64,000 nt of DNA from Amoebophrya sp. A120 (Eukaryota; Protista; Dinoflagellata): contig CAJINV010000001.1 of the NCBI GenBank assembly GCA_905178155.1, forward strand, positions 6,481,860 to 6,545,859, read 5' to 3'. Position numbers and translations under genes: made by a program. Below, piece after piece: positions 1 through 61,040 of the stretch. A model generated the notes under the pieces. The model had not been told where the DNA came from. It did no database searches and saw only the letters and a list, made by a program, of their open reading frames with translations. Within the stretch, counting starts at the first letter, position 1; each line of letters begins with the position of its first letter.

Positions 1-1632
1 GAGTGCCAGCGCCGGTGTCTATGAAAGGCAAAAATCAGGACCAGCCAGGCAGTGCCGACTACAATGCAGCAGCTGCCGTACCGGTACCAATGAGCAAGAA
101 TTCAGTCGGGCTCGGCGGACCTGGGTCGGTGACCTCGCAGATCAAGGGTGCCGCCGCAATGCCTTCCTCTGGCGGCTTTCGCGGCGTCAGCACGAAGCCA
201 ACCAGTCAAGCGCCGACGAGCGGGAAAGGGACAAAGAGCTTGCGAAGCGGCAATAAAATGCCAAACTTGATCCCCGATGACGCCACAAATCTGCAGAATA
301 TGGGCTTCGACGAGGCCTCCAAGCACGATTCCTTCGACCAGAATTCGTATCTCAGCATGCAGGGAGCTTTTGCGAGGGCAGACTCGAAGCAAAGCAACAA
401 AGGAGGCAAAAACATGGCCACGAAAGCCGGCCCGTCGAGCACGAAGTCCAACGTTTCCAATCCCGCCTACACTACGCAGAAGCAGACGCGGTTCATGAGC
501 GACTCCAGTCTGGAATCAGCCCGACTAATCCCCGCAGGAGCCGTATCCCACGGAAAAACTGTCTCAGTCTCAACCTTTTGCAGACTCAGAAAGAACACGT
601 CTGTCATGCGTCATATAGCAAACAACAGGAACAGAATAGAAAACACATGTAACATCAAAGACTAAGACTCCCTTTCTTGCATGTCCAGGGGGACCACAAA
701 AAAAACTATCTCAATATCAATTAGGAAATGGCACAGCACATTCTGAGACTCGTGAGACAGCTTTGTCATCTTTCGATAAGTCGCCACTGGAGGGCTGAGC
801 AGTGGCGGTCCTGGGAGCGTTATCGGGGCTCCGATCATGTCCTCGTACGGCTATCTCGGTATGCCGGTCAACCGTAATTCCAGGGGGATGCCGACGCTCA
901 CGCCGGGAGGTGGCTATCCCGGGGGCATGATGACGTACAGCTACCAAGGACAGCGAAGGATTGGTGCCCGGGACGACGAGGTGCCGGAGCTGTGCTGTGA
1001 CTGCTGTGCCTTTTTCTGCGAAACCCGGGCAGATAGACGGGAGGTCCGCAGGCTACAGAGGCACGGAACGATGGAATCAGCTTACGTAAACCTCTCTCAG
1101 CTTTCATTTTTGTTTCCCTGTTCTTCTCGTTAGAATCTTATTAGGAAGTAGATTCTTGTTGCCTTTTCGAACTCGAGGTTTGGTTTCACTCACTTGAGAA
1201 GAAGTAGATTAAGGTGTGTGAAGATGCTCCAGACAAGTAGAAGTACGAGCTGAAACATAAATCATAATCATGTGATATTTTTTCTCAAACTCCTGCGACA
1301 AATCGAAATCACTATCACAGGCCGAGCCGACGAGCGAGCACACGGGTATGTGGCACTCGCAGTTTTTCAACGCACAGGCGGCGGATTTGAAGGAGTTGCG
1401 GCGGCTCGAGGAGTATGGTGTCATGATGTCACGCGTGTACGAGGGCGAGGACTATAACGAATTCAACCGGTACCACAATTCCTGCTACCGGTGCATCCTG
1501 GTGGCTCCCTGGCCAATGATCGTCCAGCTCATTTGTTGTTTCGTGGTCGCTATCGCGGTGCAGATAAGAATGGGACAGATGGGCAAACCAGACTACGGGT
1601 TTTGCGGTTGGGATTTTGCCGAATACAATTGA
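1..1632 (+). CDS. 5'-truncated hypothetical protein with a low-complexity G/S/A/K N-region and a C-terminal Cys-rich/hydrophobic (putative TM) segment; exons <1-543, 784-1085, 1321-1632
   Basis: ORFs 3..665, 837..1133 and 1348..1632 join in frame after removing the TAT..ATA element (544-783 with one repeat copy, 240 nt) and a phase-0 GT-AG intron 1086-1320. Hydrophobic stretch ILVAPWPMIVQLICCFVVAIAV near the C-terminus. Confidence 0.65.
544..778. mobile_element. Introner-type non-canonical intron (TAT..ATA) in gene 1
   Basis: Direct repeat AGCCG (539-543)/AGTCG (779-783). Inner inverted repeat ctgtctcagtctca vs tgagactcgtgagacag. Removing 240 nt keeps the frame and removes in-frame stops. 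Confidence 0.7.
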
Positions 1633-2994
1633 GTGGCTACTACTTCTTGCGCTCCATTGTCATGATCACTTTCGTCCGGAGCCTTCTGATAATTTGGCGA
1701 GTGAAGATTGATCTTCTTGTTGTAAAAAATGCGTCGCGTTTGACTTATTTCGGTGTAACGGTACAAAGCAAAAAATGTCGAGTACTTGCTCGTCATATTG
1801 TACAATCACGACATCAGTTTGAGACTGCCTAGGATTCATTATTTTCCAATAGATTTATAGCTGAGTGAGTTTTCCATTTGTGGTTTTTTTCTTACAGTAG
1901 AAGCAGATCCCCGCTGATCTTTTCATGCTTGTTGTTTTCGTTCATTACACATTTATTTCCATTTGCAACGCTGACTCAGGAGAAAGCGCACAGCTGTGCC
2001 TTTCAACGTGGTATTTATTCACTTTCTTACACCCACTTGTACTAGCTACGCGTTTATTTTTTCTCACAATTTTGCACATGTACTTGCACACGAGTTACTG
2101 ACGCTTGCATATCAGTTGTAGTGCCTAGAATTAGTGAACAAGTTACATTTCATCCGCAAGTCCACCAAGAGGTTGTGATTTCCGTTGACGAGGAATCCAT
2201 GAAAAGTACTTGGGACGAGAATGAGGAGTAGACTTGCCCCGGATTCAGCGCGCGGGTGGACCTGCTGAATCTTCTTAACTCTAATTTTATTGCGGGAGTG
2301 AAACTGAACGACGTCTACACACGACCACCAAACCTTCTGGTTGAGGAGTCAGTGTTCAGAAGGAGAGGCAGAGTTGCAGGCGGCCAGGTGTGGTGGTATT
2401 GGCTCATCTTGCGCCAAATTTCTGAGAGACTCAGGTGATGTTGTAGTGTAGGAGCGACGATGTACATGTAGTTCTAGTTGCGGAATAATGGCTTGGAAGA
2501 TGCGCCACCACCCTAGCGAAATTTTCACACAGACGAGGAGCGTGCGCGTTTTCGTGTTAGCTGTTGACTCTTGTCCTTCGATTGCCAATATAATTATGCA
2601 TGCGCCGCCGCCAATACAATGCATGCGGTCTCGACATTTCATCGCGAGCGCGACCAAGGCCGCAGCGGAAAACGAGGGCTTCGCTGAGGCATCACCACAC
2701 CCATCGGGTAGATAAGATACAGAGATAAAGACGTCACAAGGTCTTGGAGGCGGATTCCCCTGCGAACACGATGCCGCCACTTCCTGCGCCGGTGCTCGGC
2801 TTCATGGTTCAAGACCGATCGGACGCACTGGATATTCGGAAGCTTTGGTAAGTTCGCAAAACAATAAATACTTAGAACATAATAGAAAGGGCTTGTCGCT
2901 GTAGCTGCTTTGATTGAGTTCCTTTTGGCGTCGAGCAGCCATTTTGACTACAACGGATCATGGTGATCATGGTCACGCTCTAGATGTGATCTAC

Positions 2995-4554
2995 ATGAAG
3001 CCGCAAAAACAGCTTCACAAAAATGCAGCTTGGATCATACAAAATTACAGGCATGTGACCTTGATTCTTGGTCTTCTCGTACTTTTGTACGAGCTGTGGC
3101 TGAACACCTTCGCCGGGACGATCGCAAGAGGATGGCTCCTCGGTCTCACTGCCGCAGGGTTGGGAATCCTCGTGAACTACTTTACGCTGACGCGTTTGGT
3201 CCTGTTCAGCTTCGGCGAAAGGGTGGACCGTTCGATCGATTCCGTCGGCGATTTCATGTCTCCCGTGGTGTCTGACCAGGAGTACGAAAAGCGCTTATCG
3301 CTAGAGGATGAGCAGACGGCACTGAACTTCAGCGCTTCGGGTAGCGGGGGCGGTGGAGGATTCGGTGCGAGAGCTTCGACCCCACCGCTCAGCGGAGCAG
3401 GTCGCACGGGAACAACTACGGGATCGTCTGTAGCAGGAGCTACGATGACCGGAAACAAAACCTCACCGACGACGGAAAATACCGGCGTGTTTTCATCCGT
3501 CGGTGCTGCTGAGCCGCCCCAGCTGATTGGCGGGCAAGAGGACCAAGTGGGCGGTGAAACTAGCTTCATCGACTACAATAGCGGTACGGAACAGGAGTCC
3601 GACCACGCGTTGCGTGCCCGGCAGCAAAGGGCGAAGACCAGACGGAACTACCGGAAAACGAGGGACCCACGGCTGGTTCTGTTCCCCAAGCTGCCGACCG
3701 GCAGAGTGCCCCTGTACCCAGTGTGCGGCGAGAACCTGATCGGTATGTGTCCCTTCACTGGCGGCCGGATCACGCTGTACATCTACCGGGACTGCTGGCG
3801 CGTTTGGATGTGGTTGTCGGTGTTCTACGGATTCTGGACGTTTTTCCAAACGGTGAAAATAATTCCGCTCTTGTCCATCCACGGCGGGGGGAACGAGCGG
3901 GAAGACGCGATTCGAAACGCGCACTCCTACCACGAAGTGACGTTTTTCCTCGTCTTTCTGATTCTGTTTCACATCAACTTTTTCTGGTGCGCGTACTTCG
4001 TCATCTACAAACAGACAGCGTTGTTGCAAAGGGTGATAGAAAATGGCAGCTTGTACCAGGCGGAGGTGATCGCCTTACGCAATACGCCGAATTATCACAC
4101 GAGCTTGCTGTACGGTTTGCCCACCGGCGGGGAAAACACGCCGACATCGAGCACCCCGGGGGCGAGCAGGATACCCAGTCGCGAAAGACCGGCTGCTTTT
4201 TCGCAGCCAGTGCCTGCTTGGAATTATCCGTCAACAAACCCGCCGCCTTCTTCAACGAGCACCACGGACACCCGCATTGCCAATGCGGCACCTGGATTCG
4301 CGCTGCCGGGAAGCGATCTGAAGGAGCAGGAACAAAGCAACGGGCCGCAACATCAAGGCAGTGCTACGCAAATCGTCGGGATCCCGCTTGGTAACAACAA
4401 CACAAGTACCGGTGGCGCGCAGACCAACAACGTCACCAACGGGGGCCGCGTCGTCGGTGTCCCTGTCGGGAGGAGTCCAAACGATGAGCAAGCGCTTGTG
4501 CTGCCACCGAATCAACTAGGAACATTTGACGGAGGCCCACTACAGCAGAGGTAG
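2995..4554 (+). CDS. Hypothetical multi-pass membrane protein (about 4 TM segments) with low-complexity S/G/T loop and tail
   Basis: ORF 2914..4554, first ATG at 2995. Hydrophobic segments TLILGLLVLLYELWL, WLLGLTAAGLGILVNYF, VWMWLSVFYGFWTFF and VTFFLVFLILFHINFFWCAYFVI. No family recognised. Confidence 0.7.
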   Translation: MKPQKQLHKNAAWIIQNYRHVTLILGLLVLLYELWLNTFAGTIARGWLLGLTAAGLGILVNYFTLTRLVLFSFGERVDRSIDSVGDFMSPVVSDQEYEKRLSLEDEQTALNFSASGSGGGGGFGARASTPPLSGAGRTGTTTGSSVAGATMTGNKTSPTTENTGVFSSVGAAEPPQLIGGQEDQVGGETSFIDYNSGTEQESDHALRARQQRAKTRRNYRKTRDPRLVLFPKLPTGRVPLYPVCGENLIGMCPFTGGRITLYIYRDCWRVWMWLSVFYGFWTFFQTVKIIPLLSIHGGGNEREDAIRNAHSYHEVTFFLVFLILFHINFFWCAYFVIYKQTALLQRVIENGSLYQAEVIALRNTPNYHTSLLYGLPTGGENTPTSSTPGASRIPSRERPAAFSQPVPAWNYPSTNPPPSSTSTTDTRIANAAPGFALPGSDLKEQEQSNGPQHQGSATQIVGIPLGNNNTSTGGAQTNNVTNGGRVVGVPVGRSPNDEQALVLPPNQLGTFDGGPLQQR

Positions 4555-5089
4555 CGATGAAAGGTTGCTGCGAGGCGCAACTTAGTTCTTGCTCACGTGC
4601 TGAGAAAAAGTACATTTTCACGACGCACATCGAGGAACCGATACCAAACCCAATGAAACGGGGGTCTGCACTGCTTTTGTCCTTGAACGCAGCATCAGTC
4701 GGGCGGATGTTACAATCACGCAGTAGAAGGAGCGCGCAGCTGTTGTCTTATGATGAACACACAGCGACAGCCCATACTACCGCAGTTCGAATCAGGGTGT
4801 TTTTTTACTGGTTGTTCTTCTATTCAAACAAGTCATCACTTACTTTCCTTCGCCTTTCGGGACGAGGAACAGAAACCAAAGAGGCGACACAAGTGTCACC
4901 GTCCATGATAAAGAGCCTTGCTTGCACCTGTGACTTGTGCTTGCAGTTTTTCTATGGCATGATCGCCGGCTGCATCCACGATAGTGACAGATGTTAGGTA
5001 GTATCTAACAGATGTTACTAAGTAGTACCTACTAGCTTTCCCTTCTGCCACTTGAACGGGATGTTCTTGAACGCATCAACATACTAAGG

Positions 5090-6359
5090 ATGGCTTCGTC
5101 ATCGTCGTCATCCACTGCTCCCCCGCCGGCTGCGCCGGTGGTTGCAGATGCAAAGTCGATTGCCGCCGCGATGACCACCGGAGCCAAGGACTTTGACGAT
5201 GCGGGCAGCGTGCCGCTCGTGAAGGATTTTCACCGGGAGCAAATCTTGCTTGCCATGTGCAAAGCCGAGATCTTGCAGATGAAAGAGCTGCTGAAAGACG
5301 ATGACGAAAAGGGGCTTTCAACATCCTCTACTGCAGCGCTGGACAAACATGTGAAGCAGCTGGCCTTAGCGTGTGTGCGCACCAGAAAGTACGACGACGC
5401 CCGCATTCCGAAGTTGATGCGCGAGTTCACAGACTTGTTGCAGGAAATGAAACAGTGGAAAAAGGAGGACGTGATTGCGAGCATCAGCAAAAATCGCGTC
5501 AAGGAGGGATTTCGCTTGTTGCCCCGTCGCGACAAGCACGGGCGGGCGGTGATGAACACGCGGCTACGGTACCACGAACCGCGAGAAGTATCGACGCAGA
5601 CCACAATTCGAGCGCTAACGCTGATGCTCTACAACGCATTGCTGGGGGCGCCATTTGACGAAGACAAGCGAGAAGCCGAGGCGGAGAAAACGCAGCTAAA
5701 CGGAGTGTGTGTCTTCCACGACTTCCGAAATTTGACTTTGAGCAACGTCGACCCGGGGGTAGGGAGGGGATTGATTAAGCTGTTTTCTGGTATAGAACTT
5801 CTACGTTTGTGAAGAAATAACTTTTGCCACCTCGATCAGAGTCTGATGTTGAAAGGAAGTCATACATGAAGGAGCGCATAGAGTAGAGCTAGAGGGAGGG
5901 CTTTCCTGTAGTTGCATTAAATATGATTGATGTCATTTGGTCAATTTATCGTTTCCAGGCCGCTTTCCTCTCCGGCTCGGCGCAGTCTACATGCTGGAGC
6001 CGCCTTTCTTCATTCGTTACATTGTACTTCCGATGATGCGGCTGCTTCTGCCTAAGAAGTTGTCCTCTCGAATCACCACCGTGTCGAAGCTAGCTGACTT
6101 GAAGCAGTATTTCGACGAGGCAGAACTTCCGACAGAGTATGGCGGTGGCTGCGAAGATATGGATGTCGACAAGATGTGGAAAGGCTTCACGGATGTTTAC
6201 CACCCAGGCTACATCTACACCCCCTCACCGAGAAACACGAATGACGCAGTAGCTGGCGCCGGAAGCTTACCTGACTCGGCAGCTGCACCGGCAAAAGTGC
6301 AAAAAGGTGTGAGTGACTACTACAAGAAGGGAGTTGCTGTGGATGGCACACGAGTCTAG
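5090..6359 (+). CDS. CRAL-TRIO (Sec14/alpha-tocopherol-transfer-like) lipid-binding protein, ~366 aa; exons 5090-5789, 5959-6359
   Basis: Motifs RDKHGRAV, TQLNGVCVFHDFRN, spliced LFSG|RFPLRLGAVYMLEPPFF, and ELPTEYGG. GT-AG intron 5790-5958 (phase 1). Confidence 0.9.
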
Positions 6360-7122
6360 CCGTGCCGTTGAAGCTGATGAAGGAAACTTTGTTTGAACAA
6401 CTGCACTGCGCGCCAGAGGTCGTCTCTTTGTTTGGTTGTTGCTTCGCATGTGTTGCCTGCAACTGTGTTGCGACCAGGTAGAGCAGCAAGGCTGCTTTGA
6501 TTCTCGTCTTCGTGTTTTATTTTTGCATTTATTCGTTGACCACGAGTTCTGGCGTTTCTTTACTGTCTACGTGTTTGCTCAGCAAGAAAATTTGAATTGC
6601 TTGGATGCATTGTTAGCTAAGCGTTGAAGAACGAAGAAAAAAGAAATTGAAATTCAAGATCATAACACGGTAAAAAATCAAAAGTCGATGAAATGTAAAA
6701 CATAAATCAGATCCGCATCATAGAATCGGTACGAAGTTTTTTTGCCTGTCTCTGCTGCTTCGCAAAAATGAACAACAATGAACACGCGCAACTTCTTTCA
6801 AGAAAAAAAAAAAACAGTGCTAGAAGTGAACGGAAATGGCAGGTAGCACAAGATAAAGAAGTCTTTTATTTGAACGTAAGTGGCGACTTCGTAAAACAAA
6901 AACTGGTGCGACGGTTCTGTTTATTTCGGTTTTGGTTTTGAGAACGCAAGAAGACGAAGATTGAGACGATTTGACAATCACATTAAGTTGTTCTAGAAAG
7001 GCGACAGAGAGTTCTGCTAGCTTGTCTGTGGTTCTTTCGCAGACCTAAGTAGCAACTATGGGTCCTTCCTGAGGATCGCTCCGTCGTTCACGATAGCTCG
7101 CCTGTCGATTGAGCTAGCCACC

Positions 7123-10100
7123 ATGTCCCCTGGCGAAGAGAAGATCCTTGACCTGGAGGCCGGGTCGGATGCTGCCCTCAGCAGCAGCGAGAGCCACGAT
7201 CTGGCAGAGGGTAGTACCATCCTCGCGCGCGTCGAGCAGTCGCCCGGTGTGCAGCGGGGCGTCGGGCGCTTCCAGTTCGAAGCCCAGGGCGCGTTTGGAG
7301 CGCGGCCGTACAACCGAAGGAAACGGAAGGACCGAACTAATGGTGGGGGAGAACAAGGAGAACCCGAGCCCCATCTGTTATGGACGGGAGATGGAGGCGA
7401 TCTGGGCTACATCTCAGATGAATGTGAGGACGGAGGTGGTGGAACAAATAGCCTTGTATCAACACCAAATTGCCGGGCGCTCACCCCTGCGTCCACCTCT
7501 CGTGTGCGAACTCCGTCAACTCTGCCGCAGCCGGCGACGCACGTCATCAATGCGCGCGGACAGGCCTTCGAAGCTGGAGGGGGCGGCTCGTGTCAGCCTA
7601 GTCCGCGGAATAAAGAGCGACTGCCGACGCCGCACCTCACGGTGGAAGGCGAATGCGAGAAGATTGCCAACGTGCTTGCGCACCACTGTGCGCGTGACCG
7701 CCCTTTGGTGATGGATGTGTGGACAGAGGTGATGCTGCGCCTCGGGATCGAATCTTGTCACGAGTACTGCAAACACCGCGTGCGGGTTCTCTGCAAATTC
7801 AGGTACTATTGAAGGAACGTGATTCTCATTCTACTGATTCCGATTCGTTCCGTGATGTGGTCTTTTTCACCTCGACGACCATGATTTCATTTCTTGATAC
7901 TGTTGTGTGTACAATTTTGATTTCCTGAAGCGGAGTACCAGCACTTCTGTATCTGTTCAACAAACTCTTTCAGATTTCTCGTACCGGAAGAAGTTCCAAG
8001 CACCCAGGGTGGCCCCTATTGCTGTAAGCGGAAAGAAGAGGCCTTCCAGTTGAACGTAAACAAGATTCGTCTGGTGGACTGGCAAGAAGAGCTGGATCTT
8101 CTGCGGAGGCACTTTGCGCGCCAGATGCGTGCACGCTCGCACATTCGGTCCTCGGCGACGCATCAGCAATCTACAGGAGGTTCGCAGCGTGGCCTGCAAA
8201 CCGAGTCACCCAGCCTTGCTGTAGTCGTACCCGCCGCCGCGGTAGATAAAAATCATATGCACGACCCCCGGCCGAGGAGCAACAACAGCATTATCAAGGT
8301 CGCGACGACGCCTCTTCTGGACAAAGACATCAATACCGACGAGCAAAACACGACCGAAATAGCGGCGACGACGGGATCCTCGAGTGTGAATCGCATGCAT
8401 GACTCCTCGCTGGATTTCGCAGCCGCGTATCAAACGCAGCCGGGGGAAATCATGCGCCTCGGCGAGACGTTCGCTTTGCGGGCCCACGGGTCGCGCGTCG
8501 CCTGCTTCCGTGCTCGGTTCAATCCGTTTTACCGGACCATGGGCGACTCCGGGAAGGTACGGGTGGGCGGCTGCTGCTTCCTGTGGATCCTCGCCTGGTT
8601 TGCGTGGCAGTTGAGCGTGCTGCTGATCGGCGTCTTAGTTTTTTTCACGGGCATTTTCGCGGGTTCCGTCCCCATCCTAACTTTGGGTGATACAGATGAA
8701 GAGGGCTGCGAGTTCCAGCTCGACGAACTAGACGAAGACGTGGAGGTTGGCGAGTATGAACACGATGAGCCGGCGGAGGAGGATCCGCATTTGCGGGCTG
8801 CGGAGAAACTTTCCGTCGCAAAACGGAAGCTGCACAAGGGCAACAGAAGGCGTGAGCAAAGTACTTATCCTGCTCAGGAAGAAGAGCTGCAGGAAGTTTC
8901 CAGTGACAACCCGTGCAGCAGCAGCAGCAGCAGCAGCTTTGACGAGCGGGAGGCACTGAAGCGCTCATCGGGTGATTTTTTGCCTTCTTCGCGCTGTCGC
9001 AGAAGAAACAGCAACACTTCTTCGACCTTCAGCAGAAATAACCTCGTGTCAACATGCAGCAGACACTTCTCGTCGCGTGGGATGAACAAAAGTTCATCGT
9101 CGAAGAAGATGACCAGTAAGGACCACGAAACCTACGAAGAGATTCTCGAAGAACGACACTACTCCGCGACCACAAACACGGTCACCTCATCAACAAAGCG
9201 GATCAGAGTCGCGCTGAACGCACTGCCTGATTTGGAAAACCCCAACGCCCCGGCAGACTGCTCGGGAGACGAGCTGGACTACAGTACAGGTGGCAACTCG
9301 AAGATGCAGAAGCACCACTTGGACAAAAATGGGCAGCACGACAGCCCGTCTAGAAGTTGTATTGCGAAAGAGCACGACGAAAACAAGGTTACAAAACTTG
9401 GAAGACCGGTTCTCTACGGGCACGTGTACCAGATGCGGATTCGGGCGAACGTGCAAGACATTTTTCGCCAAGACCTGTTGCTCGTGATCTTCACATCCGC
9501 GGTACACAAGAGCGGCCCGGTCCGCTTTGGCGACGACATTCATGTGCTTTCCACGCCGGTGCAGGGCCTCTGCCGGTGCTGCGCCTCGGGCCCGCGGCGC
9601 ATTATGCTGCCGGACGAGGAGGAGTGCGCGATTGCGGGGGAGCAATACCGGTTGCGCCCCTCCTACGGAGTTACCTCGTACTATGGGGCGGGCGAGAAAA
9701 GCGACAACGTTGTTCTGTCACTCAAAAACTCGCCGCACGATATTGCGGCATTAAGTGCCGTGAAGCGGGGGGTGTCCTCTACGCCAGGCAGTGCTTACAA
9801 GGACCCAGTTTTGCTGACAGCGACACCGAGAAACATCAGTACTGCAACGAATAGTGCCAACAAAGCCGCGAATCCGCAGAGCGTGGATATTCTTCCGGGC
9901 AGCACGACATCTTCTGGTGCAGGTGCGATATCTACCACTACGACAAGCAACGGCGAAGTACATCCTGCGGCAGTTTCTGTCTCTGCTATGAAACCTTCAT
10001 CAACTTCGACGGTCGACGGCCAGACCGATGATCGACAACGGTTCACGTCCTGCTCTACCAGGCCGAGCGCCGACTGGCGCTCTTCGCCCCAAAGCTCGTC

Positions 10101-12426
10101 TTTCTCCGCCAGCGGGTACAAAAGGATCAACAGCTTCAACAACGACGCCTTGCGCGAAACACCGGATTTCGTGCCTGACAACAGCAGCATCGCAGCGAAC
10201 TCGGGTCGTGGAGTGCCCTTCTACTCCCAGTTGCCAGGCCAAGATATTAGCCATCGTGAAACGTCCGGCGAAAAGAACAAGATTACGAACAATCACGAAG
10301 AATCTACTTCCGTACAAAACCTACAAACCCGTCCACACACGAACTCCACCCGGTACACCAATCGCGAACTGGATCACCCCACGCACGACACCAGCGAAAC
10401 TGAGTCGGAGCAGCCGCTCCCGGAGCTCCCGCGTCTCGTCCCGCACCAGCGGCTCCTCCACGGTGATGCGTTCATGCCCTGGACTGCCGCGAAACGGCAG
10501 ATGCACCTAATCGACACCCGAACGTTTCTGGCCGCGGTCAATTCCGCGCACCATGTGAAGAGCATTTTCACGATTGAGCACGCCGATCTGGAGAAGCACG
10601 CTCTGATTCAGCTCGGACAAAACTCCAGCTTTCCCACCATGTCCACGTATGAAGCGGAGGACCGATTCAGCAATAGTCCCCCGTCGTTCCGGGCAGTCAC
10701 TGATACAGCAAATGTCGGCGCGGAAGAGAATAGTACGATGCGTGTTGAACAAGGCCCAAAAATGAACGCAGAGCCACTACCAGCAGCACTTGGGACGACG
10801 CCGGACCTTGTGTTGATCGCTGAAGTAGATGGTTTTACTTCCGGTGCGCCCTCTAACTGTGGTCCCGCAGGACCAAAGAACAACGTGTATGAGGATATCG
10901 ACTTTCTACACGAACACGAGGACAAAGCGCCAGCAAATAGTGGCGAAGGTGATCAAATTATTCCAGACTTGAACAACGTATCCGACAACTCTGTTCTTTC
11001 CGGCATTCTGGAGAGGAACGCCCGCAGCCTGTCGACGCCGACGGCGACGCACCTAAATCTCGCCCTGAATGGCAGCGGTCGAGATCTGTCACCTGTGTCT
11101 TCCCTCGGTTCTCCGCCTGAGAAGAACGGGACGAAGAACAACAAGTGCGTCAGACTTACCGAAGGGTCCCCGTCCTCACAGGTGGGCCATGTGAAGAAAA
11201 CTACCGGTTTGCAAGAGAACGATGCGGCTGGTGGAACGACAAAATCTTCGAAGTTCCTGAGAAAAAGCAACACCATGGCGACCCTTCTACCTTCCAGGAA
11301 TTGTGATCTCGCCGAGCAGCACACCCGGCTCGCCGACCCAAACGACGGCCGCTTATTGGCTATGAAGAACAAAAAGGACCCATCTGTCGTGCCGTTTCAG
11401 CTTCTGGCTTACAACATTTGGATGATGCCCTCACTGATCACTGACGTGGCGCCGAAATCGTGGAACTTGTCCCCCGTGAAGCCGGACCGGGCGATCCGCA
11501 TCCCCGAGGCGATTTTCAGCTGCAAAAAGCTCCAACGGCTCGACGTGATCGTGTTCTGCGAGGCCTTTTGCGAAGAGACCATGCCGCTGATCTCGAGCCG
11601 CCTGCGGGAACGGGGGTTTCTCTACGACACCATTCCGCCCGTGCTGGGCCGGAGGTTCATTAGTTCGGGGATTAAGGTCTATTCCCGCCACAGAATCGAG
11701 GAAACTGCCTCGGAAATCTACGACAAGTGCAGCGGCGACGAGCGGTTGGCCGCCAAGGGCTGCACCTACGTGATGGTCCGGAAAAACGGGCTGCGCATCC
11801 ACATTTTCGCGACGCATCTGCAAGCGTGGGACGGCGAGCAGGCGCAAAGAGACCGGCGGTCGCAATTGCGGCAGATTAGGAGTTTCGTTGCTAAGCGGAA
11901 CATTCCCCCGAATGAGCCCGTTATCCTCACCGGCGACTTCAACATCGAGGCCGACAGCCAGTCAGCCGAGTACCAAACCATGCTGCGAATCCTCTCCGCG
12001 GAAAACTACGACATCGAGCTGAAGGACCCGTCGGTTTTGGCGTCCAACCAGTGGTGCGAGTTCGGCTCCGTTTCGAGCTCCCCGGCCGAAAGTCTATTGC
12101 TGGACTACGTGTTCGTTGAAAACAACCACCTGCTGCCAAAGTCCGCAAAAGTTACGACCGAATACCTTCAAAGCTTCAAACCCTTCATCTACCGCGACCG
12201 CCACTTTAACGACCTCTCTGATCATTACCCCGTCTTCGGCGACTTCATATTCGAACGAAAAATGCTACGACCTGCCCCATTAGTAGTACCCAAAAATCTT
12301 CATCTTCAGGATACAAATAGCCCCCGGCATAATTCTCAATTTCGACGACCCAACGGAGATGACCAGACGCCGAAAGGAGCGACAGGTGCGAGTCCTTGTC
12401 TGAGTCCGACATCAACTGTTACGTAA
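7123..12426 (+). CDS. Large (~1710 aa) protein with one TM segment and a C-terminal EEP-family neutral sphingomyelinase-like phosphodiesterase domain; exons 7123-7802, 7974-12426
   Basis: EEP motifs YNIWM, DVIVFCEAF, SSGIKVYSRH, LAAKG, HIFATHLQA, VILTGDFNI, LLDYVF and LSDHYPV (about 11390-12260). TM at about 8575-8670. GT-AG intron 7803-7973 joins the two ORFs in frame. The stop overlaps a GTAAGT donor-like site, so the 3' end could extend. Confidence 0.85.
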
Positions 12427-28757: not shown

Positions 28758-28833
28758 GGACGACGCCTTCTAGTCAGACTCTTCAGTATCTGCACGTCAA
28801 CTAAAAAAGACCACAAGACACTAACCTCCCAAG

Positions 28834-52100: not shown

Positions 52101-52906
52101 CTGGCGGGCGGCTGATCGACACCGCGATTACCTATAACAACCAGGAGATCGTCGCCGCCGGGATCGGTCAGAGCAAAGTACCGAGAGAAGAAGTTTTTCT
52201 GGTGACCAAGGTCGGCCCGGACATGTTTGACGACACCTACCAGGCCATTAAGGACGACCTCGCGAAGTGGAAGGGCAAAACCAAGCACGGCGACATTGCG
52301 CGCGTGACCTATTTCGACCTCGTCCTCCTGCACTGGCCCAACCTGTACTCGACCGACCTGAAGGCCCCTAAGTGCGCGTCGGAGCCGGAGGGGTGGGTGG
52401 GGTGCCGCAAGCTGGCGTGGCAGGGGCTGGAGAAGTTGGTGGCCGAGGGGATCACGCGCTTCATCGGCGTGTCCAACTTTGACGTGAAGCACCTGGAACC
52501 GTTGCTGGACTGGGACCAGCGGAAGTACCCGATCTACGCGAACCAAATCGAGTTCGGCATGTTCCGGACCCACGCTTGGGACACGGTCAAGACCTACTGC
52601 GACCAGAAGGGGATCCGGGTTATGGCCTACGGCGTCATCGGCGGCTTAAAACGAGAAATGCTGATCGACCACGACCTCGTCAAGGCCGCAGCAGAGAACC
52701 GCACCGCAGAAAGCGCCATGTTCCAGTGGGCGTTAAATGAGGGCGTCACGGTGCTCCAGGGCAGCAAGAAGAAAAAGCACATGGATCAGTTCCTGGCACT
52801 GGCACCCACCCAAGAGAAGGTGATAAAAACTGACATTCCAATGGACGAGCGGACCAAGTGCTACGAACCCGACGTATCAACGAAAAAATCTTCTGCATCA
52901 CTGTGA
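49161..52906 (+). CDS. Signal peptide + Cys-rich module + GMC oxidoreductase + aldo-keto reductase fusion, ~896 aa; exons 49161-49299, 49468-50216, 50371-50514, 50681-51128, 51390-51492, 51622-51870, 52048-52906
   Basis: GMC motifs [24 protein letters not shown], spliced AAGVAYT|[23 protein letters not shown] and LRVCDAS. AKR motifs spliced MPVIG|YGT, IDTA..Y, VTKV, LLHWP, IGVSNF and NQIE. The exon sum of 2691 nt is a multiple of 3. Confidence 0.88.
50217..50365. mobile_element. Introner-type non-canonical intron in the GMC-AKR gene
   Basis: IR tatcgttttgaaaattt vs aaattttcagacaata, direct repeat CCAAG/CGAAG. Removal of 154 nt gives LTK|PKLYIGKV in the required frame. Confidence 0.8.
50515..50675. 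mobile_element. Introner-type non-canonical intron in the GMC-AKR gene
   Basis: 30-bp IR tatcaaacaaaaaagtgttaacgttaacgg, perfect TSD ACACG. Removal of 166 nt rebuilds the GMC motif AG..xTPxILMLSG. Confidence 0.93.
51129..51384. mobile_element. Introner-type non-canonical intron (degenerate) in the GMC-AKR gene
   Basis: IR tatgccatgaagaaa vs ttttctttggcata, direct repeat CTACG/CTGTG (2 mismatches). Removal of 261 nt is in frame. Confidence 0.7.
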
Positions 52907-54391
52907 CCCTGCACAAAACAGACACGTTGGTTGTGCATTTGTATCGATGTGAAAGAATGTTGTCCAAGAAGAGCAAGATGTGCCATGTTTTGTTAAGCTG
53001 TACTTCTACTTTTTTGCATTGCAACGCCTGATATAATTTGTCATGCTACACTGCTCGACGAAAGAATGCGACCGCGAGCGTCACAGGGATACAGTTTTTT
53101 TCATGCGATAACGGGCCGTAAACTACGAATGAGACCGGTCGTCTCAGCATAACTTTGACGTCCAGCTTTCATCGTGCTGGTCTCATCTTCATCTCATTTC
53201 TTCTTCTTGTTTTCACACACAGAAGTCAGCGGGCCACATCATGCCAAAGCTTTGCATTCCAACGTGGCAAGAACAAATTTTCGCGATTATGTCAGTATGA
53301 TTTGAGAAACGCCGTAGGATAACGCGTTTGCTATTTTCCTCGCCCATGCATTTGATGGCGATCTTCCCACGTTCTTGATCATTGATTGGTAGAGATTGTC
53401 ACCCTAAAACTGAACGACCACAATATACAAAAATTACAGCAAGCTGTAGCTGTCAAAACAAGGTTTATCCGCGAGAATACAGAATGTTGAGAATCTGTTT
53501 GGCATGCCAGCGCTTCAGCGTCGAAATAAGAATGGAGCAGCAGCATTGCCGTGATAGAAAGGAGTACTATCAATTGCAACTAACATACCAACACTCACCC
53601 ACGCAGTGATGGGGAGGGGGAACTGTGTGACGTTGCGTTCGATATCAATTTTATGTATCATTGTTAATGTTGCAGATGATGGGAGCGCTTTGTTCTTCGC
53701 TCTCCAGCAGCACCAGGAGCTTAGCCGCGTCGATACAGTGAGTATACGAGAGGAAAAAATAGTGGGTCTTGATGAGCGAAATGTCAGAGTACTTGATATG
53801 GAGAGCGGTTCTGTACTAGTCGGAGCTCTTTTGAGATACATGTTGAAAGATAAGTATCGGCTCTTTAGATTCATAGATATCCAAAAGGGCAAGGTACTAC
53901 CTTCGTGTCTTTTCGATCTTGGTTTCTGAGTCTTATCGGCGAGCGAATCGTCATTAGGAAAGCCGGCCAAGAATGTAGCGTCGTATTCGTCGTTTCGTTT
54001 TGCTCATGACGGGCCAAGCATCTTTTATTTACATGACAAATCGCCGAGGACGAGAGAGACACGAGATAAAACTTCTCTTGCCTGTTCATGAATTAGCGGT
54101 TCATCTTCTGTGGCTCGATCAAGTCGTTTGAGTACCTCGTCGTATTTCAACTTGTCTGCGTTTTGGCATTGTTTGACCATAACAGAAGCTAGACCGAGCA
54201 GATCATGGATGTGTGAAAGCTTACTTAAACCTAAAAGCTGCGCATGTTGCGCAGATGAAGATGATTGAGAAAGCATATCCTGGTATCGCTGATCTCGACC
54301 CACCGCTACGCGGCCGGTAGAAGGTTTCTACAAATTAAAGATTTTCTTCTGGGGCGTTCGTGACTGTGAATCAATTCTGAAGACGAACAAG

Positions 54392-56473
54392 ATGCGGGAA
54401 CACCACGAGCAGGAAGTTTCCGAGGTCGAGACGGCGACGCGGGGAAGCAGAAAGGAGGAGTTTGCCGGGTGCAAACCGGGGAACGGTAAATTTCTGACCG
54501 ACTGCCTGCCAAAGATCGCCGCGTACTGGGGCAACGAAAATAACACGTTTGTGCAGCTCTTGTGCAATGGTCAACGGTCAGAGGAAGGAAGCCGATTATC
54601 GCGCGATGAAGAGACCGAAGAACTAAAGCAAAGGATGAAGGAAGAGGGAAGCTGGTTTAAGGGATTGCGGAAGAAGTATAGCAGCTCAAATGCGTGCCTA
54701 TGTTGTGCGAAAGTATTATCGTACTGCTTCTGGTTGCTGTAACGCTAACGCATGACCACTTTGACGGCTTATCATTGTGCATTTTGACAGTATTAGCTTT
54801 AGCATTTCAGTATAGTGTTCCTCTTCGTCTTTCTTAGCAAGTCAGTGCAAGGAAGAGAGAAGTGAAAAGTGTCCAAGGGTGAGCATCTACGCGCGATGTT
54901 TTTCGCCGTTCTGACCCTAGATTTCTGCGTCCGACGCTGCTTGCGATGGCGGTCGACGTGCAAGGGTTTTTAATGTGAGTGACCCAGTCGTGTATGGATG
55001 AGACGAAAAACTTGATTTCTGATTCTGATTCTATTGATGCTGGAATGAAGAATAAACTTACAGTTCTTATGTTTATGCATTACTAGTGCTAAGTGCGCGA
55101 ATGCTTTTGCAATGCATAGTGCCAGCACAAGGAATATTGGGTGGAGGCCGAGACTCAGCAGGATTCCAAGCGTCTAGGAAACAACATACTCTGGTCCGCG
55201 GAGGGCGGGCTACCCCAGTTTATCAACGTCGTCCAGACCGAGTATGGCGCTTTCTTGCGCGAAGGCGTCACCGCCAGTGGTAGCAGTTTCAAGTGGGGGG
55301 GCGGCGACGCTGTTGGTGACGATGACGATGCAGCAGCGTCCTCCTCGTTCCTGCAGCTATGCATCGCAAATATGTCTGGATCAGGAAGACAGCAAGATTT
55401 GCCATGCTTGTCTGACATGACTCGAGAATCTGTCATGCGTTCTTGGAGGTTCAAAAAGATCATCTTCTTATCTGTGAATGTGATGCAAAAGCTATAGTCA
55501 GTCTGCCAAGGCAAGCGAAATACGCAAGACAAAGCAGCTCAAAAGATAAAGATTGTCACGCTTGGCCACGTAATTATATTACAGTGCGCCCAATTTTCTT
55601 GCCCGGTTTGCGTTACAAGTTTTCAGACCCAGACGTATTTGCACTGCTGGATAGCAGCAGCTGGAGAGCGGGAACGACCTCGACCTGTACGCTGCTTCTC
55701 GGCAGGCCCTGTTGCTCGGGACGACCGTCGACGACCTCACCGCGACCCGGGACGCGGCGACGGCGGAAACCACTTGGGAGAGCTGCAACAATCAGGACCT
55801 GCGCATGGCGTTCGGCGTCCCCGACTTCTTCGGAACGGGCTCCGATTTGAAGATTTGGGTAATCGCGCCAATGGGCAAGGCCGACTACAAAGGAGAAGGG
55901 AGCAACGCGGTCGTGATGTCCTGCGACCGGACGACAGAGTACTACTTCTACCGCACGGACGTGCCCAAAGAAAAGCTGCGCGACGGATACGACGAGTCAC
56001 GATTCCGGGACGGCCTCGCCAGGGCGAATTTGCGAAGCGGCTGGTACAACACGAACACGCTCGGGCATCTCACCATTAAAGAGAGTCACGCCGACGGAGG
56101 ACGCCGTCGCGATGTCGGGGACGCTAGCGAAGAATACCACGTGTATTCCTTCGACGAGAACGCAAAAAAAGAAACAACTGTCCGTGGCAAAACGATCGAC
56201 CTGCACGCTGGGTACCTGAAAGTCGAGAATGATTTTTGGGAGGAAATCTGGCTCGACCCGAATAAGCTCGGTAAACAGCAGCGCACCATGCTCGGGGACC
56301 TGAAGTTAATCTTCCAGGATGAAAAGAGTTCGGGCATAAAATACACAATCGGAGATGATGAAGGAAAGAAACATAAACAATCTTCCAAGAAAAAGAAAAA
56401 TAAAATAGAGTCAGATTGGTCTTCTACTTCCAGTTCCGCCAGCGCATCCGCATTCTTGCAGGTATCTTTCTAG
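54392..56473 (+). CDS. Hypothetical protein split by two introners; exons ~54392-54698, 55124-55357, 55659-56473 (5' end uncertain, frame open from about 54293)
   Basis: Three ORFs in successive frames become one after removing 425 nt and 301 nt (SSNAC|QHKEYW; SSFLQ|QLESG). GC3-rich codon usage in the last exon. Confidence 0.7.
54699..55118. mobile_element. Introner-type intron, TATG..CATA
   Basis: Perfect TSD GTGCC. Imperfect IR tatgttgtgcgaaagtatt vs aatgcttttgcaatgcata. The right end is shared with the 47426 element. An alternative GC-AG register (54692-55119) is also frame-compatible. Confidence 0.78.
55358..55653. mobile_element. Introner-type non-canonical intron, same family as 47426-47687
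   Basis: Left end tatgcatcgcaaatatgtctgga and right end cagacccagacgtatttgca are homologous to the 47426 element. Perfect TSD GCAGC. Removal restores the frame. Confidence 0.88.
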
Positions 56474-56751
56474 TAACAACTTCTACTCGGTGTCATTGTC
56501 CTCGCCGCTCTGCAAGTGCAAGGTCGGTCCTCCGGACCTTGTGCCTACTGAAGCCGTGTCTCTGTGATTGACGTGCTAACAAATTTAACGAACATGATGA
56601 GTCAATGAACAAGTTAGAGAGTCGCGAAAATTGTAGAAATAAAAGGCGCAAGCGCAGCGTCATTCTTTTGGTCGCCGTCATTGAAGATGCCTAGTGTAAA
56701 AATTGACTTCTTTTTTAGAATTGAACCGACTGGACCTGCCAGGAATCGTCT

Positions 56752-57639
56752 TTGCGGGAGCCAGTACCATCTGGTGCGACGTTCTCGCAAGAAGGAAGCC
56801 GTTCGGCACACGAGCTGCAACAGGGTAATATCAACCAGGAGAATAATTCGGGGCTGATTCTTAAACAGAAAAAGTCGACTGTCCGGACGTCTCTGCGTGG
56901 CGCAAGCAAGCAAGCGGTCGAGATCTCCACGTCCTCCGACACTGCCTTTTCTGCTCTCGACGACTTAGCAGCGTCGAGCACTGGTGGTGCAAGTGGCACT
57001 CGTGACCGACAAGAACCCTCCTTTTTCTCGTCTTTTGCACCAGAACGCGGCGGATCCGCGGACGTGAGTGGCGATCAAGATCAACCATCCTCGTTTCTCG
57101 AGAGCATTGGAGTGCAGCAGTACTACGCAGGAGCTCCCGAAGCCGATGCAAGCGAGACAGCGAAACGAACATCCACCGAAGAAACGCGTGTGAAGATGCA
57201 CGGACTTCTACCGACCAGCAGCCTCTTGTCGACCACCTCGTCCGCGGAGGAATGGCTTCCCGCGCTCGCATTTCTCCTGATTCTGCCTTTTGCCATGCGG
57301 CTCGTCGTGTACCGTCTCTACATACGCATGAGGGAACGTGGCGCGGAGGAAAAAGGAGACACCGAGCAGTCAGCGCTGAGCACCACGACAAGCACAAACA
57401 CTAATCCAGCGGGTAGTACCGGCTTTGCGAATGAACTACCCGATCTGGAGCTGGACAACAACGAAGCAGAAAGTCAAGAACACAACGTCGACAACCCGCT
57501 TGTTACTTGCTCTCCACCCGCCGGTCATGAAATTATGCAGACGTCATCCCTTGTGGCCTCCAGCTCCACCGAAAATAAATGCTGCGAAGAGAACCAGGAA
57601 TTACAGGGGGAACTCGCTGCGATTGAGAGCATCATCTAG
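56752..57639 (+). CDS. Hypothetical single-pass membrane protein, S/T-rich; true start not resolved
   Basis: 295-codon stop-free frame with TM WLPALAFLLILPFAMRLVVY. No ATG at the 5' end, so an upstream exon is likely. Confidence 0.5.
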   Translation: MREPVPSGATFSQEGSRSAHELQQGNINQENNSGLILKQKKSTVRTSLRGASKQAVEISTSSDTAFSALDDLAASSTGGASGTRDRQEPSFFSSFAPERGGSADVSGDQDQPSSFLESIGVQQYYAGAPEADASETAKRTSTEETRVKMHGLLPTSSLLSTTSSAEEWLPALAFLLILPFAMRLVVYRLYIRMRERGAEEKGDTEQSALSTTTSTNTNPAGSTGFANELPDLELDNNEAESQEHNVDNPLVTCSPPAGHEIMQTSSLVASSSTENKCCEENQELQGELAAIESII

Positions 57640-57662
57640 TTGTCGAAGAAAATCATTTTCGA

Positions 57663-57734
57663 CACACGACAGAATACAGTCTCCACAAAGCTTGTCGCAC
57701 ACACGACAGAATACAGTCTCCAAGCTTGTCGCAC
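57663..57734. repeat. Local tandem duplication (about 35-38 bp x2) in the 3' flank
   Basis: cacacgacagaatacagtctcca(caa)agcttgtcgca occurs twice head-to-tail. Confidence 0.85.
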
Positions 57735-58644
57735 AAGAAAGACGTGTTACGCAGCCAAGCAAAACCAAGTTTCTTCAAAGTAATTTCAAACTCAAAATGA
57801 AACTCAGTCCTCAGTGAACAGATTGATATGATATTTATCGGTGAAAAGTCAAGAACTTCCGACCCACCTCTGCACCTGCAGCTTATTATTGATATATAGG
57901 AGGCCGACTACGACTACCTTCACTGTGTTAGTTTGTACCCAGCGCGTTCCCACTGGTTTACGTGTATCACCTCAGTTAACGTCTGCCCCGAAGTAGAGAA
58001 ACAATCAACAGATGAAATTAAGTAAACGAATTTGTATGTATCGTATAGTGAATGCATCTAGCGCAATTAGAAAAGTCAAAATCCAAACTTTACAATGTAT
58101 ACATTTCGACTTGAGATTGAAGAATTTGAATTGCGCGGGCTTTTTAACAAACGCGAATCACGCCCTCGCTGCCTTCGGACGTCCTGTTGTCAACCTTGTT
58201 CTTCATGCACTGCTCTGGTCTTCCCATGCAAGAGCGAGATTCATTTTCAACTATCTACGGGAAGCAGAGGCTCGCTTCTTCTTAAAAGTGGTGGGCACAG
58301 CCACAGGGAGAGGGACAGGAGTAGGACTCATGCGACAAAGAGGGAGCCAGCGCTTGACGAATCGAGCGTAACAAGACAAAGACTTGAGGGATTGTGTGAA
58401 GCCAAGGCATCATGTCATCTTCTTGGTCTTGCCTTGATCTTGTACTTCTACTTGTACGGGCATTTCTAATATTTTGCGAGAAGCGACAAACCTTGAATTG
58501 ATGCCGCTTGTCGCGCCCTTGTCAGTGGGATTATTTGCTATTTCGGATGATGCCAAGGATACGGACGAGAAAGTAAAAGAGATACTAGCACATTCTAGTG
58601 GTATACTTAGTTTTCCTTGGAAGATCTACTAAGCGGTATTGAAG

Positions 58645-61040
58645 ATGGTGTCGTGTTGCGCGAAGCCGCCACCGAGTCCGGTCGCCAAGCCGGACATTAT
58701 GAGCCCCGGAGCGGAATTAACAAATTGGAACGCGAACCTTTTTTTCCGCGACGGGAGATGATTCCTGGTTCTACAGCATGCATGATCTTCTCCAGAAATC
58801 AACTGTCGTTCGTGGCAAGAACATGTGATGTCACAGCAAGCAAAATTTTGCCCGTGGAAGATCAGGTTTCAAGTTGCAATTTGATAAGGGACAAAGCCAC
58901 TAGAACTCGGAGAAGTGGTGGTCGAGACCAAAAAGCCCACGCTAGTCGAGGAAAAGGTGGCGGAGAAACCGGCAAAGGTAGAGGATGCTCCGGCGGTCGC
59001 ACCAACTGCAGAAGGTACAACCTACGGTGTCGTGTAAAGTGTGCCTTCTACATGTTAAAAGGTGAACGCCGTAAGATTAAGAAGTAGAAGTTGCAACGGT
59101 ACTATAACAGCACGCCATACAACAACATCATACTACAATGAATGATAGAGAAACGACGGGACCAAGAAACAAAATCATCTCACCGTACACCTTTCTTTAC
59201 CTTTGCGATTTTACACAACAGAGCCCGCAGCACCGGAGCCAGAAAGCAGCGCGCCAGCAGTGGACGAGCCAGAACACGAGGAAACCGCAAAAGTTGGAGA
59301 GGAAAACTACTTCTCATCATCTTTTATGGTATCATGTTGAAGCATGGTTGTGATCAAGAACCTGCTGCTGCAGTTTGATCTTCTACTTGTTTACCAGATC
59401 TTCGATTCTTAAGATGGTATTTTCTAGGAAAAGCTCCCACCTGCTGCATCTCCATTCTTGTCTACTAGTACTTCTTGCTCTTCTACAAGCGAATTGCAAT
59501 TGTGTGTACAAATTTCAATCTGCCATCAAAATCCACACCCAACAACCAGACATTCGACGAGAAGAAGGCTGTTTTTGAACCAGAAAACGTGGGTGAAGCG
59601 GAGGCCGACGAAGGCAATGGCGTGCCGTGCAACTTCCAAATCGATGGTCTCACAAGCAACATCGCCGCACTGCACATAGCACAGAAGGTAGGAAAAAGAA
59701 AAAGAGAAACCTGCTTCCTGATTACTGCAATTTGCGTGTGCTAACTCTAGAGTGTCATTCTTCTGCGGCCGGGTACTCGCCACTTGATGACCAGTATAAC
59801 AAATATGTATCAAAAATCCTCGAACCAAGAGCAAGAGCATCAACATCAAAAATTCCAGAGTTTCTACGCAAGCATGGCGCCAGCACCCCCTGGCATGAGC
59901 ATTTTGCGACCCCCGGCGCCCCTGCAGACACCAAACTTGACAACGGAATGGTCGTGGGGCCAGCAAAGCACGCCGACAACAAGTAGTAAACATCGATTTC
60001 ATGCTGCTTCCGACGCTCTTGCATGCATGCAACTCTCATTCTGCTCGGTTTGCAATGGTACAAAGAAAACAATGAAAATTGGCCTAGCAGTCGTCCAGGA
60101 GATTCAACAGCCTTTTCAACCTGAAAAAACAAAATCGAACGAAGGTGTGATGCGCACGCCGTCGATCGGTATGCCCTCCCTGTTTCTGCAGGGTTCGTTT
60201 CAGCCGAGCGTGCAGACAAGTGCCGTGGTATTCTGAGGAAAATAAATCCCCCCTCCCCATATCGAAAAGGTATGTTTCCGAAAATTTGCGTTGCTGATTT
60301 GAGGTCACAAATCACGCCTGTCTTGCAAGAAGTCACGCGGAGAGGCTTCCGCACCATTATGGAAGCGATTTGGCATGCTGTTGCGCCTGGGGGGCACCCA
60401 TTTGCAATGCTAAGCAACTAGACCTATACGCCCCTACCTAGGCCGAGGATCTGGCTGTGATGCCTTACTGCAAGACAAATCCGATTGGTGTACCCAAATC
60501 CTGCATCACAGATTTCCACTTCGATATGGGGAGGGGGGATTTTTCCTTTTGATACGTGGTGCGGGCCGAGACGACAGCAACGGTCGACGACGAGGTCGTG
60601 GTCAACGCGGACGAAGTGGACGTACCCGAACCGGCAGAGGTTATGGCGTTCTCAACTGTTACATTCTCAACTGTTGCATGGTTTGTAATGCAAAACGAAC
60701 ATCAACACTCACCAGGTGAAGCTACTTCGCATGACAAATTTTAGAGAGGCTAAACAGCACCCAAATATGTGCGGAATTTGTAATGCTACAGGTGCAACCT
60801 CCCTGCTTTGCCTTTGACTTTTGCCATTCTTGCATCACAAATCCATGTGACTTTTGCCATTCTTGCATCACATCTTCGTTTGTGGTTTCGGTCGGTTTAG
60901 CATCACAAATCCATGTAACATTTGAGAATGTAACAGTTGAGAACGTCATAGAGGTCGAAGTAGAGGTCGAGGTGGCGGAAGCAGAGGCGGACGAGCCGCT
61001 CGAAGAGGCGGAAGAAGTTGCCGCATGCGCAGCGAAGTAA
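58645..61040 (+). CDS. Multi-exon acidic E/V/A/P-rich hypothetical protein with an N-terminal MVSCC motif (not visible as a single ORF)
   Basis: Reconstructed exons: MVSCCAKPPPSP (58645-~58716), LGEVVVETKKPTLVEEK (~58890-59014), EPAAPEPE (59222-~59328), TFDEKKAVFEPE (~59550-59687), ..QTSAV (to 60228), VRAETT..EPAE (60560-60641), VEVEVEVAEAE..AK* (60956-61040). The internal structure of 59688-60191 is uncertain. Confidence 0.55.
60229..60554. mobile_element. Introner-type non-canonical intron
   Basis: TAT..ATA ends, perfect TSD CGTGG, perfect 22-bp subterminal IR aaatccccctccccatatcgaa. Removal of 331 nt links ORF 59784 to ORF 60556. Confidence 0.88.
60642..60950. mobile_element. Introner-type intron whose TSD supplies canonical GT-AG ends
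   Basis: About 50-bp IR tatggcgttctcaactgttacattctcaa, perfect TSD GAGGT. Register 60640-60953 reads GT..AG. Internal direct repeat tgacttttgccattcttgcatcaca x2. Confidence 0.9.

Follow-up and report, generated by a model that had tools for sequence, protein, structure and literature searches.

How can a gene tolerate insertions that carry hairpin-forming ends and lack the GT-AG borders of ordinary introns? The question is raised by a 64,000-nucleotide (nt) stretch of Amoebophrya sp. A120 (contig CAJINV010000001.1, positions 6,481,860 to 6,545,859 of the forward strand; here called the window), in which a sequence-only reading had described nine elements of 149 to 420 nt that interrupt genes, begin with TAT and end with ATA. 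Two further gene-internal copies (at 52875 and 58718) were added to these nine, giving 11 gene-internal elements. Where RNA covers these genes, it lacks the element plus 5 nt, and removal of this length restores the reading frame and the ancestral protein. The elements themselves are short inverted-repeat units with a 5-bp flanking repeat, and they are likely to be nonautonomous DNA transposons. They are located as follows.

544-778, + strand: TAT...ATA element with one mismatch in its 5-bp repeat and a weak inverted repeat; predicted intron 543-782; the frame opens on removal.
47426-47687, + strand: a RING-like gene is interrupted by this element, whose 5-bp repeat is perfect; the intron is predicted to be 47425-47691; probable RNA join 47420-47688.
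50217-50365, + strand: element in a gene for a GMC oxidoreductase-aldo-keto reductase fusion, repeat with one mismatch; RNA joint 50213-50368; register 2-5; collinear with the A25 orthologue.
50515-50675, + strand: element in the same fusion gene, perfect repeat; RNA joint 50509-50676; collinear with the A25 orthologue.
51129-51384, + strand: element in the same fusion gene, repeat with two mismatches; RNA joint 51127-51389; register 4 or 5.
52875-53110, + strand: added element near the end of the fusion gene, repeat decayed to 1 of 5 letters; probable join 52873-53115; register 4 or 5; collinear with A25.
54699-55118, + strand: element with a perfect repeat in a gene without a Pfam match; RNA joint 54693-55119.
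55358-55653, + strand: element with a perfect repeat and ends related to those of 47426; RNA joint 55352-55654.
58718-58886, + strand: added element, TAA...ATA, with just 1 of the 5 repeat letters still matching; RNA joint 58716-58891 with 0 shared letters; intron 58717-58890, register exactly 4.
60229-60554, + strand: element with a perfect repeat; RNA joint 60223-60555; relatives at 82% in loci L004 and L037 of a sister assembly.
60642-60950, + strand: element whose repeat is perfect, alone among the elements in having a GT-AG register as well; RNA joint 60635-60950.

All nine of the elements first described were present at their claimed starts, with TAT at the beginning and ATA at the end. 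The 5-bp direct repeat attributed to all of them was perfect in six, whereas 544 and 50217 carry one mismatch and 51129 carries two; terminal inverted repeats were likewise found throughout, except that the repeat of 544 is weak (8 of 15 letters identical, fold z score 0.5). The grammar TAT, seven letters, AAA fits 12 of the 18 ends, compared with 41 of the 965 TAT triplets across the window. The interiors show no mutual resemblance, as had been stated for most of them, and clear likeness is confined to the ends of 47426, 55358 and 54699. When the first and last 30 nt were folded against each other, 10 of the 11 gene-internal elements gave 15.9 to 26.6 expected pairs and 544 gave 9.0, whereas 11 canonical introns gave 0.0 to 6.7. 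Eight of the nine have no GT-AG or GC-AG register, the exception being 60642 with its GT-AG register, and in the larger set 10 of 11 lack such a register and with it U2-type ends. A scan of the window for a 5-bp direct repeat around TAT...ATA, a pattern for which the sequence-only reading had proposed a genome scan, was no better than chance in its bare form (8 matches versus 9.6 +/- 3.3 in 100 block shuffles) and rose above chance once the ends also had to match as an inverted repeat in 14 or more of 25 letters (5 matches versus a shuffle mean of 0.08 and maximum of 1). Looser scans of the window for more decayed elements returned mostly chance pairs, and Rfam families had 0 matches in the window.

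Removal from RNA was followed in run X1, a set of assembled contigs whose RNA nature is a guess, compared with window positions 46300-61600. Fifteen of the 18 joints listed there correspond to 7 GT-AG introns and 8 hairpin elements, and each of these 8 elements (7 of the original nine and 58718) was removed with exactly 5 extra letters. The joins 47420-47688 and 52873-53115 were deduced from the ends of contig pieces, depth bins and record lengths, with no extra letters inside the joints. The claim that the elements are spliced out without GT-AG is thereby borne out directly at seven of the nine and indirectly at 47426; the gene at 544 had no RNA cover in runs X1, X3 and X4. It also holds that they lie alongside normal GT-AG introns in the same genes, as the same contigs skip 7 of these. 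Use of nearby GT-AG or GC-AG sites, which would have spoken against the claim, was not seen in the RNA joints apart from the GT-AG register of 60642: frame-keeping GY-AG pairs are available within 30 nt of 10 of the 11 elements, and with that same exception the joints leave them unused. The contigs give one exact join per element, in a data type in which minor forms would be dropped. A reading of 52875 with a 3-bp duplication was rejected because its join removes 241 nt and fits the A25 protein.

The joined forms might instead be element-free DNA alleles, that is, empty sites or products of DNA excision. The guessed status of X1 leaves room for this, as does the range of the search for joints in the DNA run, which covered 1-18300. 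Against it, the X1 contigs that join across elements also skip GT-AG introns, and their record lengths add up. Runs X6 and X7 contain 0.99 of the sampled words of 46400-56300. Run X6, which we take to be DNA because it crosses 1-17335 continuously without a joint, is also joint-free on 1-18300, where the RNA runs X1, X3 and X4 skip three introns, all GT-AG. We find this explanation scarcely credible.

The restored protein can be judged best in one host gene, which carries four of the elements.

49161-53132, + strand: host gene for a GMC oxidoreductase fused to an aldo-keto reductase (PF00732, PF05199, PF00248), with four hairpin introns and three GT-AG introns.

Its frame is open for 924 codons after all joins have been made, and only then. 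The spliced product is 68% identical to the Amoebophrya A25 orthologue (P0001) and aligns with it gap-free at all seven joins, four of which are hairpin elements. A search with one exon of this gene, restricted to longer proteins (1463 candidates), returned a single match, a GMC/aldo-keto reductase fusion of 933 residues from Amoebophrya sp. A25 with 71% identity. With this as the nearest named protein, the window belongs to an Amoebophrya that is not A25. For all nine original elements, deletion of the element and one repeat copy does open the frame, as had been proposed; the further statement that it supplies an exact frame shift fails for 544, 47426 and 51129, where a multiple of three is removed and stops are lost with no frameshift. 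All RNA-supported genes of the window are on the + strand. The fusion itself lies in one reading frame on one RNA contig and is conserved in A25 (P0001); by eye, its N-terminus has a signal-peptide-like stretch followed by short Cys/Trp-rich motifs.

How the elements arrive, and which way round, was studied in a larger sample. A 22-letter end motif used as bait against a metagenome collection found at least 128 stretches, and the 80 among the matches listed were all from assembly JACKZZ01; viral contigs gave 0 matches to the motif. The resulting sister set of 127 loci (393 kb) is biased to the bait family, and splicing in it is judged from frames and not from RNA. A repeat-blind scan of these loci yielded 637 inverted-repeat pairs, reduced to 528 after the removal of 92 that extended outward and of nested ones, with some cross-pairs of neighboring copies still among them. 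A perfect 5-bp duplication flanks 232 of the 528, while lengths of 2, 3, 4, 6, 7 and 8 bp occur 47, 8, 4, 0, 1 and 0 times. This constant duplication supports the transposon reading, and together with the terminal inverted repeats it is what characterizes a miniature inverted-repeat transposable element (MITE). Insertion thus leaves a 5-bp duplication of essentially any target. Among 281 copies with at most 2 repeat mismatches, a length of up to 700 and sufficient flank, removal of the element plus 5 gave a coding-like frame in 139 (134 for plus 8), compared with 38 to 41 for plus 3, 4, 6 or 7. A codon model that chose the correct strand for all 11 window elements oriented 176 sister copies, 153 of them strongly, and among the latter families occur in both orientations (41:34, 11:9, 9:4, 5:7, 6:2, 2:2 and 2:1); in the largest family, 36 of 725 edges were inconsistent in orientation. 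The motif TAT-N7-AAA stands at 152 left and 150 right ends of the 176, in a set that was fetched with one such motif.

Individual window elements have counterparts in this set. Sister locus L080 overlaps the window with nearly identical exons and has the 55358 element in the identical position, its ends intact and its interior altered by indels; this is the only site shared with the sister strain, and the element is present in both. Full-length relatives of 47426 occur in sister loci at 82-84%. In L080, at about window position 55295 (column 241 of the alignment), one extra G in an exonic G run would shift the frame and is either an assembly error or genuine.

Where exactly the RNA is cut can be asked only at decayed repeats, since with a perfect repeat the joint slides. 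If k is the number of repeat letters kept at the left side of the joint, the allowed values are 2-5 at 50217, 4-5 at 51129, 4-5 at 52875 and 4 only at 58718. A single register, k = 4, is compatible with all ten joins, the intron being one base, the element and four bases. The likely rule is therefore a 5' cut 1 nt before the left TAT and a 3' cut 4 nt after the right ATA, giving introns of the form N-UAU...AUA-NNNN. Only 1 of 5 repeat letters matches at 52875 and at 58718; because both elements are removed all the same, the 5-bp repeat is not needed for removal.

These decayed sites bear on the possibility that reverse transcriptase skipped the hairpin between short direct repeats while the RNA kept its elements. 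All of the RNA evidence consists of cDNA contigs of one run. A hairpin flanked by a direct repeat is moreover a classic setting for template switching. Yet 58718, with 0 shared letters, and 51129 and 52875, with 1 shared letter each, obey the same rule as the perfect repeats; retention would truncate a protein that is 68% identical to and collinear with its A25 orthologue; and the frames of the sister assembly favor removal of the element plus 5. We judge such an artifact very improbable.

With k set to 4, each of the 11 elements starts its intron with N-T-A. The 11 canonical introns observed in RNA all start with GTA, so that this register would place U-A at intron positions +2/+3, as in the GTA donors of the canonical introns. 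According to Table S4 of Farhat et al. 2021 (PMC7789003), whose intron ends are aligner calls, NT starts each of the nine leading noncanonical end pairs of A120, and TT each of the nine leading pairs of A25, whose repeats start TTA; U at +2 thus appears under two different end grammars. The two ends of the elements may also differ in what they tolerate. Among 17 sister elements with one non-TAT end, 11 of which could be oriented, changes of the first two letters of the terminal triplet lie at the 3' end in 5 of 5 cases and third-letter changes at the 5' end in 5 of 6, as in window element 58718. With such an asymmetry, U at +2 and the A located seven bases ahead of the 3' cut would be among the letters that are read; G-U wobble fails to account for what is seen at the third letter. 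A preference for palindromic targets, or additional pairing of repeat position 5 with position 1, stood at chance level (33 versus 33.5 expected).

Taken together, we somewhat favor removal by a relaxed spliceosome that uses the end-to-end hairpin in place of GT-AG. The two ends of the element would pair in the RNA, with cuts 1 nt ahead of TAT on the 5' side and 4 nt past ATA on the 3' side. As the excision would take out, along with the element, exactly as many letters as one copy of the duplication, a fresh insertion would be harmless at once and in either orientation, and the duplication may decay afterwards. The U-A at +2/+3 would be read as the remnant of a GUA donor with +1 left free, the A that opens the 3' AUA and lies 7 nt ahead of the cut would be a candidate branch point, and the 3' cut would be placed by distance instead of by AG; the transposase would act in trans. 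The text of Farhat et al. 2021 (PMC7789003) describes nearly all spliceosome proteins as present and the U1 small nuclear RNA as undetected in A25 and A120. U1 was found in an Amoebophrya with canonical introns. As described in the literature on tunicates (PMC11282704; PMC13326754), there is also a spliceosomal precedent.

Several points weigh against this reading. The register comes from four junctions in the contigs of one run, one of them deduced, and 78 of 1296 random draws produced a common register (0.06), so that the four junctions are suggestive and no proof. Raw-read runs X9, X10 and X11 gave 0, 0 and 1 read on 46300-61600, and minor isoforms are therefore invisible. The U-A at +2/+3 is already dictated by the TAT end and a fixed register. 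The duplication in 133 perfect-repeat sister copies is symmetric in its letters and unconstrained: G stands at +1 in 40, as at the mirror position (40), which indicates no selection; AG stands at the 3' end in 17 versus 10 at the mirror, which is no clear enrichment; GT..AG at k = 4 occurs in 5, any GT-AG register in 8 and GC-AG in 4. On these counts, selection for G at +1 or for a 3' AG was rejected, and the GTAT starts of 6 of the 11 window elements are accordingly compatible with chance. Nor did the two repeat copies differ in their drift to A/T when the intronic copy was tested (14 versus 18). The triplet asymmetry is a post hoc test on small numbers and weakens under four relaxed settings (1 versus 5-6 and 4-6 versus 1; Fisher p 0.03-0.08), with one second-letter change at the 5' end, although the first letter at the 5' end never changed. 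Known spliceosome chemistry does not easily accommodate a branch-point A that sits in a paired stem, a +1 position open to any base, or the lack of AG. A branch point so near the 3' cut can occur in some protists and yeasts.

The same freedom of sequence is what would be expected if, with the same elements and register, a structure-specific endonuclease made its cuts 1 nt ahead of the hairpin and 4 nt beyond it and the exons were joined by an RtcB-type ligase, in effect a precise SOS splicing. The strong end pairing, the free target, the function of both orientations and the absence of selection for GT or AG all suit this route. Euglenid hairpin introns reportedly form circles, and RNase III or tRNA-type routes have been proposed for diplonemids. 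In animals, SOS splicing removes inverted-repeat transposons from mRNA with RTCB and, from the account in PMC12779559, apparently without the spliceosome. By that same account, it is imprecise and often out of frame, whereas here all ten tested joins were exactly the element plus 5 nt, in contigs that hide minor forms. The U-A register at +2/+3 and the apparently identical outcome in A25 would moreover have to be coincidence, and overall we consider this route the less likely of the two.

Less probable still, and to our mind improbable, is some other route, with the cutting done by a domesticated derivative of a transposase, by a new RNA-binding factor or by the RNA of the element itself as catalyst. 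It would account for the fact that transposase-type end grammar is the only shared splicing signal among unrelated interiors. No transposase was seen in the window or in the sister loci. A ribozyme is further opposed by interiors of 150-420 nt that differ, tolerate a 35-nt deletion and function in both orientations, and by the lack of any Rfam match in the window.

A search for a transposase or an autonomous element with the same ends found none in the window or in the 393 kb of sister loci, which also counts against the relaxed-spliceosome proposal with its transposase acting in trans. The longest credible element, of 897 nt (L078, 1797-2693), runs from TAT to ATA, is flanked by a perfect 5-bp duplication and contains short tandem repeats in a GC-rich interior; it has no convincing open reading frame (ORF) by eye and was set aside as the autonomous partner. 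Other long candidates proved to be cross-pairs of neighboring copies (L034, L044 and L047) or to contain two shorter copies (L058). Locus L037 holds a 3026-nt inverted-repeat pair. A lead for the transposase comes from Gozashti et al. 2025, whose text describes an A120 family with inverted repeats and Copia/Gypsy-like ORFs.

Two related elements lie elsewhere in the window.

28395-28757, strand not assigned: related element TAG...ATA with 171-nt arms and one mismatch in its 5-bp repeat, in an apparently noncoding location.
17307-17989, strand not assigned: multicopy element of 683 nt, TTA...TAA, whose arms measure 46 nt and whose 5-bp duplication is perfect; location apparently intergenic.

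The first of these is a near-perfect 363-nt fold-back (z score -40). The second has the end type reported for A25 and a GC-rich interior; DNA run X6 shows raised depth and variant contigs over it, and no RNA joint across it was seen in the runs on 1-18300. The gene-internal elements are unevenly spread: window positions 2400-46000, in about 45 kb, hold no convincing one, and ten sit in 47400-61000. As to canonical introns, the GT-AG introns 59688-59858 and 59983-60144 are partly coding-like, and their retention lengthens or barely shortens the open frame; the 3' ends of canonical introns in this region are A/C-rich and not pyrimidine-rich.

Our combined results lead us to propose, tentatively and with less than even confidence, a hairpin-measured route that would accept a TAT...ATA insertion in either orientation and at any target and make its cuts 1 nt ahead of the stem and 4 nt beyond it. 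Nothing but the U-A at +2/+3 and the A that precedes the 3' cut by seven bases would be read, by a spliceosome without a recognizable U1 that needs neither GT nor AG; a whole class of transposons would thereby gain free entry to exons, and the "variable" sites of tens of thousands of introns would be reduced to one rule. If the -1/+4 rule is true, it gives exact intron ends for annotation and shows where to expect a lariat branch or a circle junction, which would separate a relaxed spliceosome from an endonuclease-ligase route. It would also explain the immediate harmlessness of insertions and how transposons could flood coding sequence. We met no fixed cut register in the literature searched, as far as the texts available extend (Farhat 2021, Gozashti 2022 and 2025, and reviews); the supplementary figures of Farhat, Roy et al. 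2023 and Henriet et al. 2019 may hold more. Further related literature includes PMC12130899, PMC12005148 and PMC12621601.

The class of element is not new. The sequence-only reading described it as already reported in Amoebophrya with its mechanism unresolved, and this agrees with Farhat et al. 2021 (PMC7789003); the shared end grammar, which that reading offered as an addition, proved to be in the same paper. The text of Farhat et al. (PMC7789003) gives inverted repeats of 8-20 nt, direct repeats of 3-5 nt (5 bp in the legend of Fig. S19) and TAT, seven letters and AAA in A120; it counts 29,850 repeated introns, finds no transposase in A120 and leaves the excision mechanism open. The window elements share with the published A120 and A25 introner elements (PMC7789003) the inverted and direct repeats, the TAT-N7-AAA ends of A120, the non-GT-AG removal and ends, the mixed genes and the MITE-like build, and copies of them were found in the sister assembly. 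The difference lies in the cut: the legends of Fig. 3 and Fig. S23 (PMC7789003) describe splice sites whose position relative to the hairpin is "variable" and a border that is not known, whereas here the cut appears fixed at -1/+4 and independent of the repeat, and the duplication is 5 almost throughout. What is added to this known class is thus a testable cut rule and evidence that repeat, orientation and GT/AG do not matter.

Among other systems, the introners of Micromonas pusilla and Aureococcus are described (PMC11282704) as nonautonomous inverted-repeat transposons that became introns, with the duplication absorbed by splicing; they carry one canonical site and take the other from the duplication, whereas any GT-AG register is found here in only 8 of 133 copies. 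The MITE-derived introns of Fritillaria borealis are likewise transposon-derived and non-GT-AG and, as presented in PMC11282704 and PMC13326754, are handled by a modified spliceosome; they differ in preferring the ends AG-AC and AG-AT, in having U2AF paralogues and in retaining U1, while ends here are free except for U at +2. The nonconventional introns of euglenids, as set out in PMC12501133, are also closed by a hairpin, lack GT-AG, show junctions that slide along direct repeats and are cut at set distances from short paired motifs; their motif (N3CDG ... CHGN5-6|R) and spacing differ from those found here, and they reportedly form circles. SOS splicing, which involves AKAP17A, CAAP1 and RTCB (PMC12779559), resembles the present case in that inverted-repeat DNA transposons leave the mRNA when their ends pair; it is described there as imprecise, with indels, in a text that makes no mention of Amoebophrya, whereas the dominant product here is exact.

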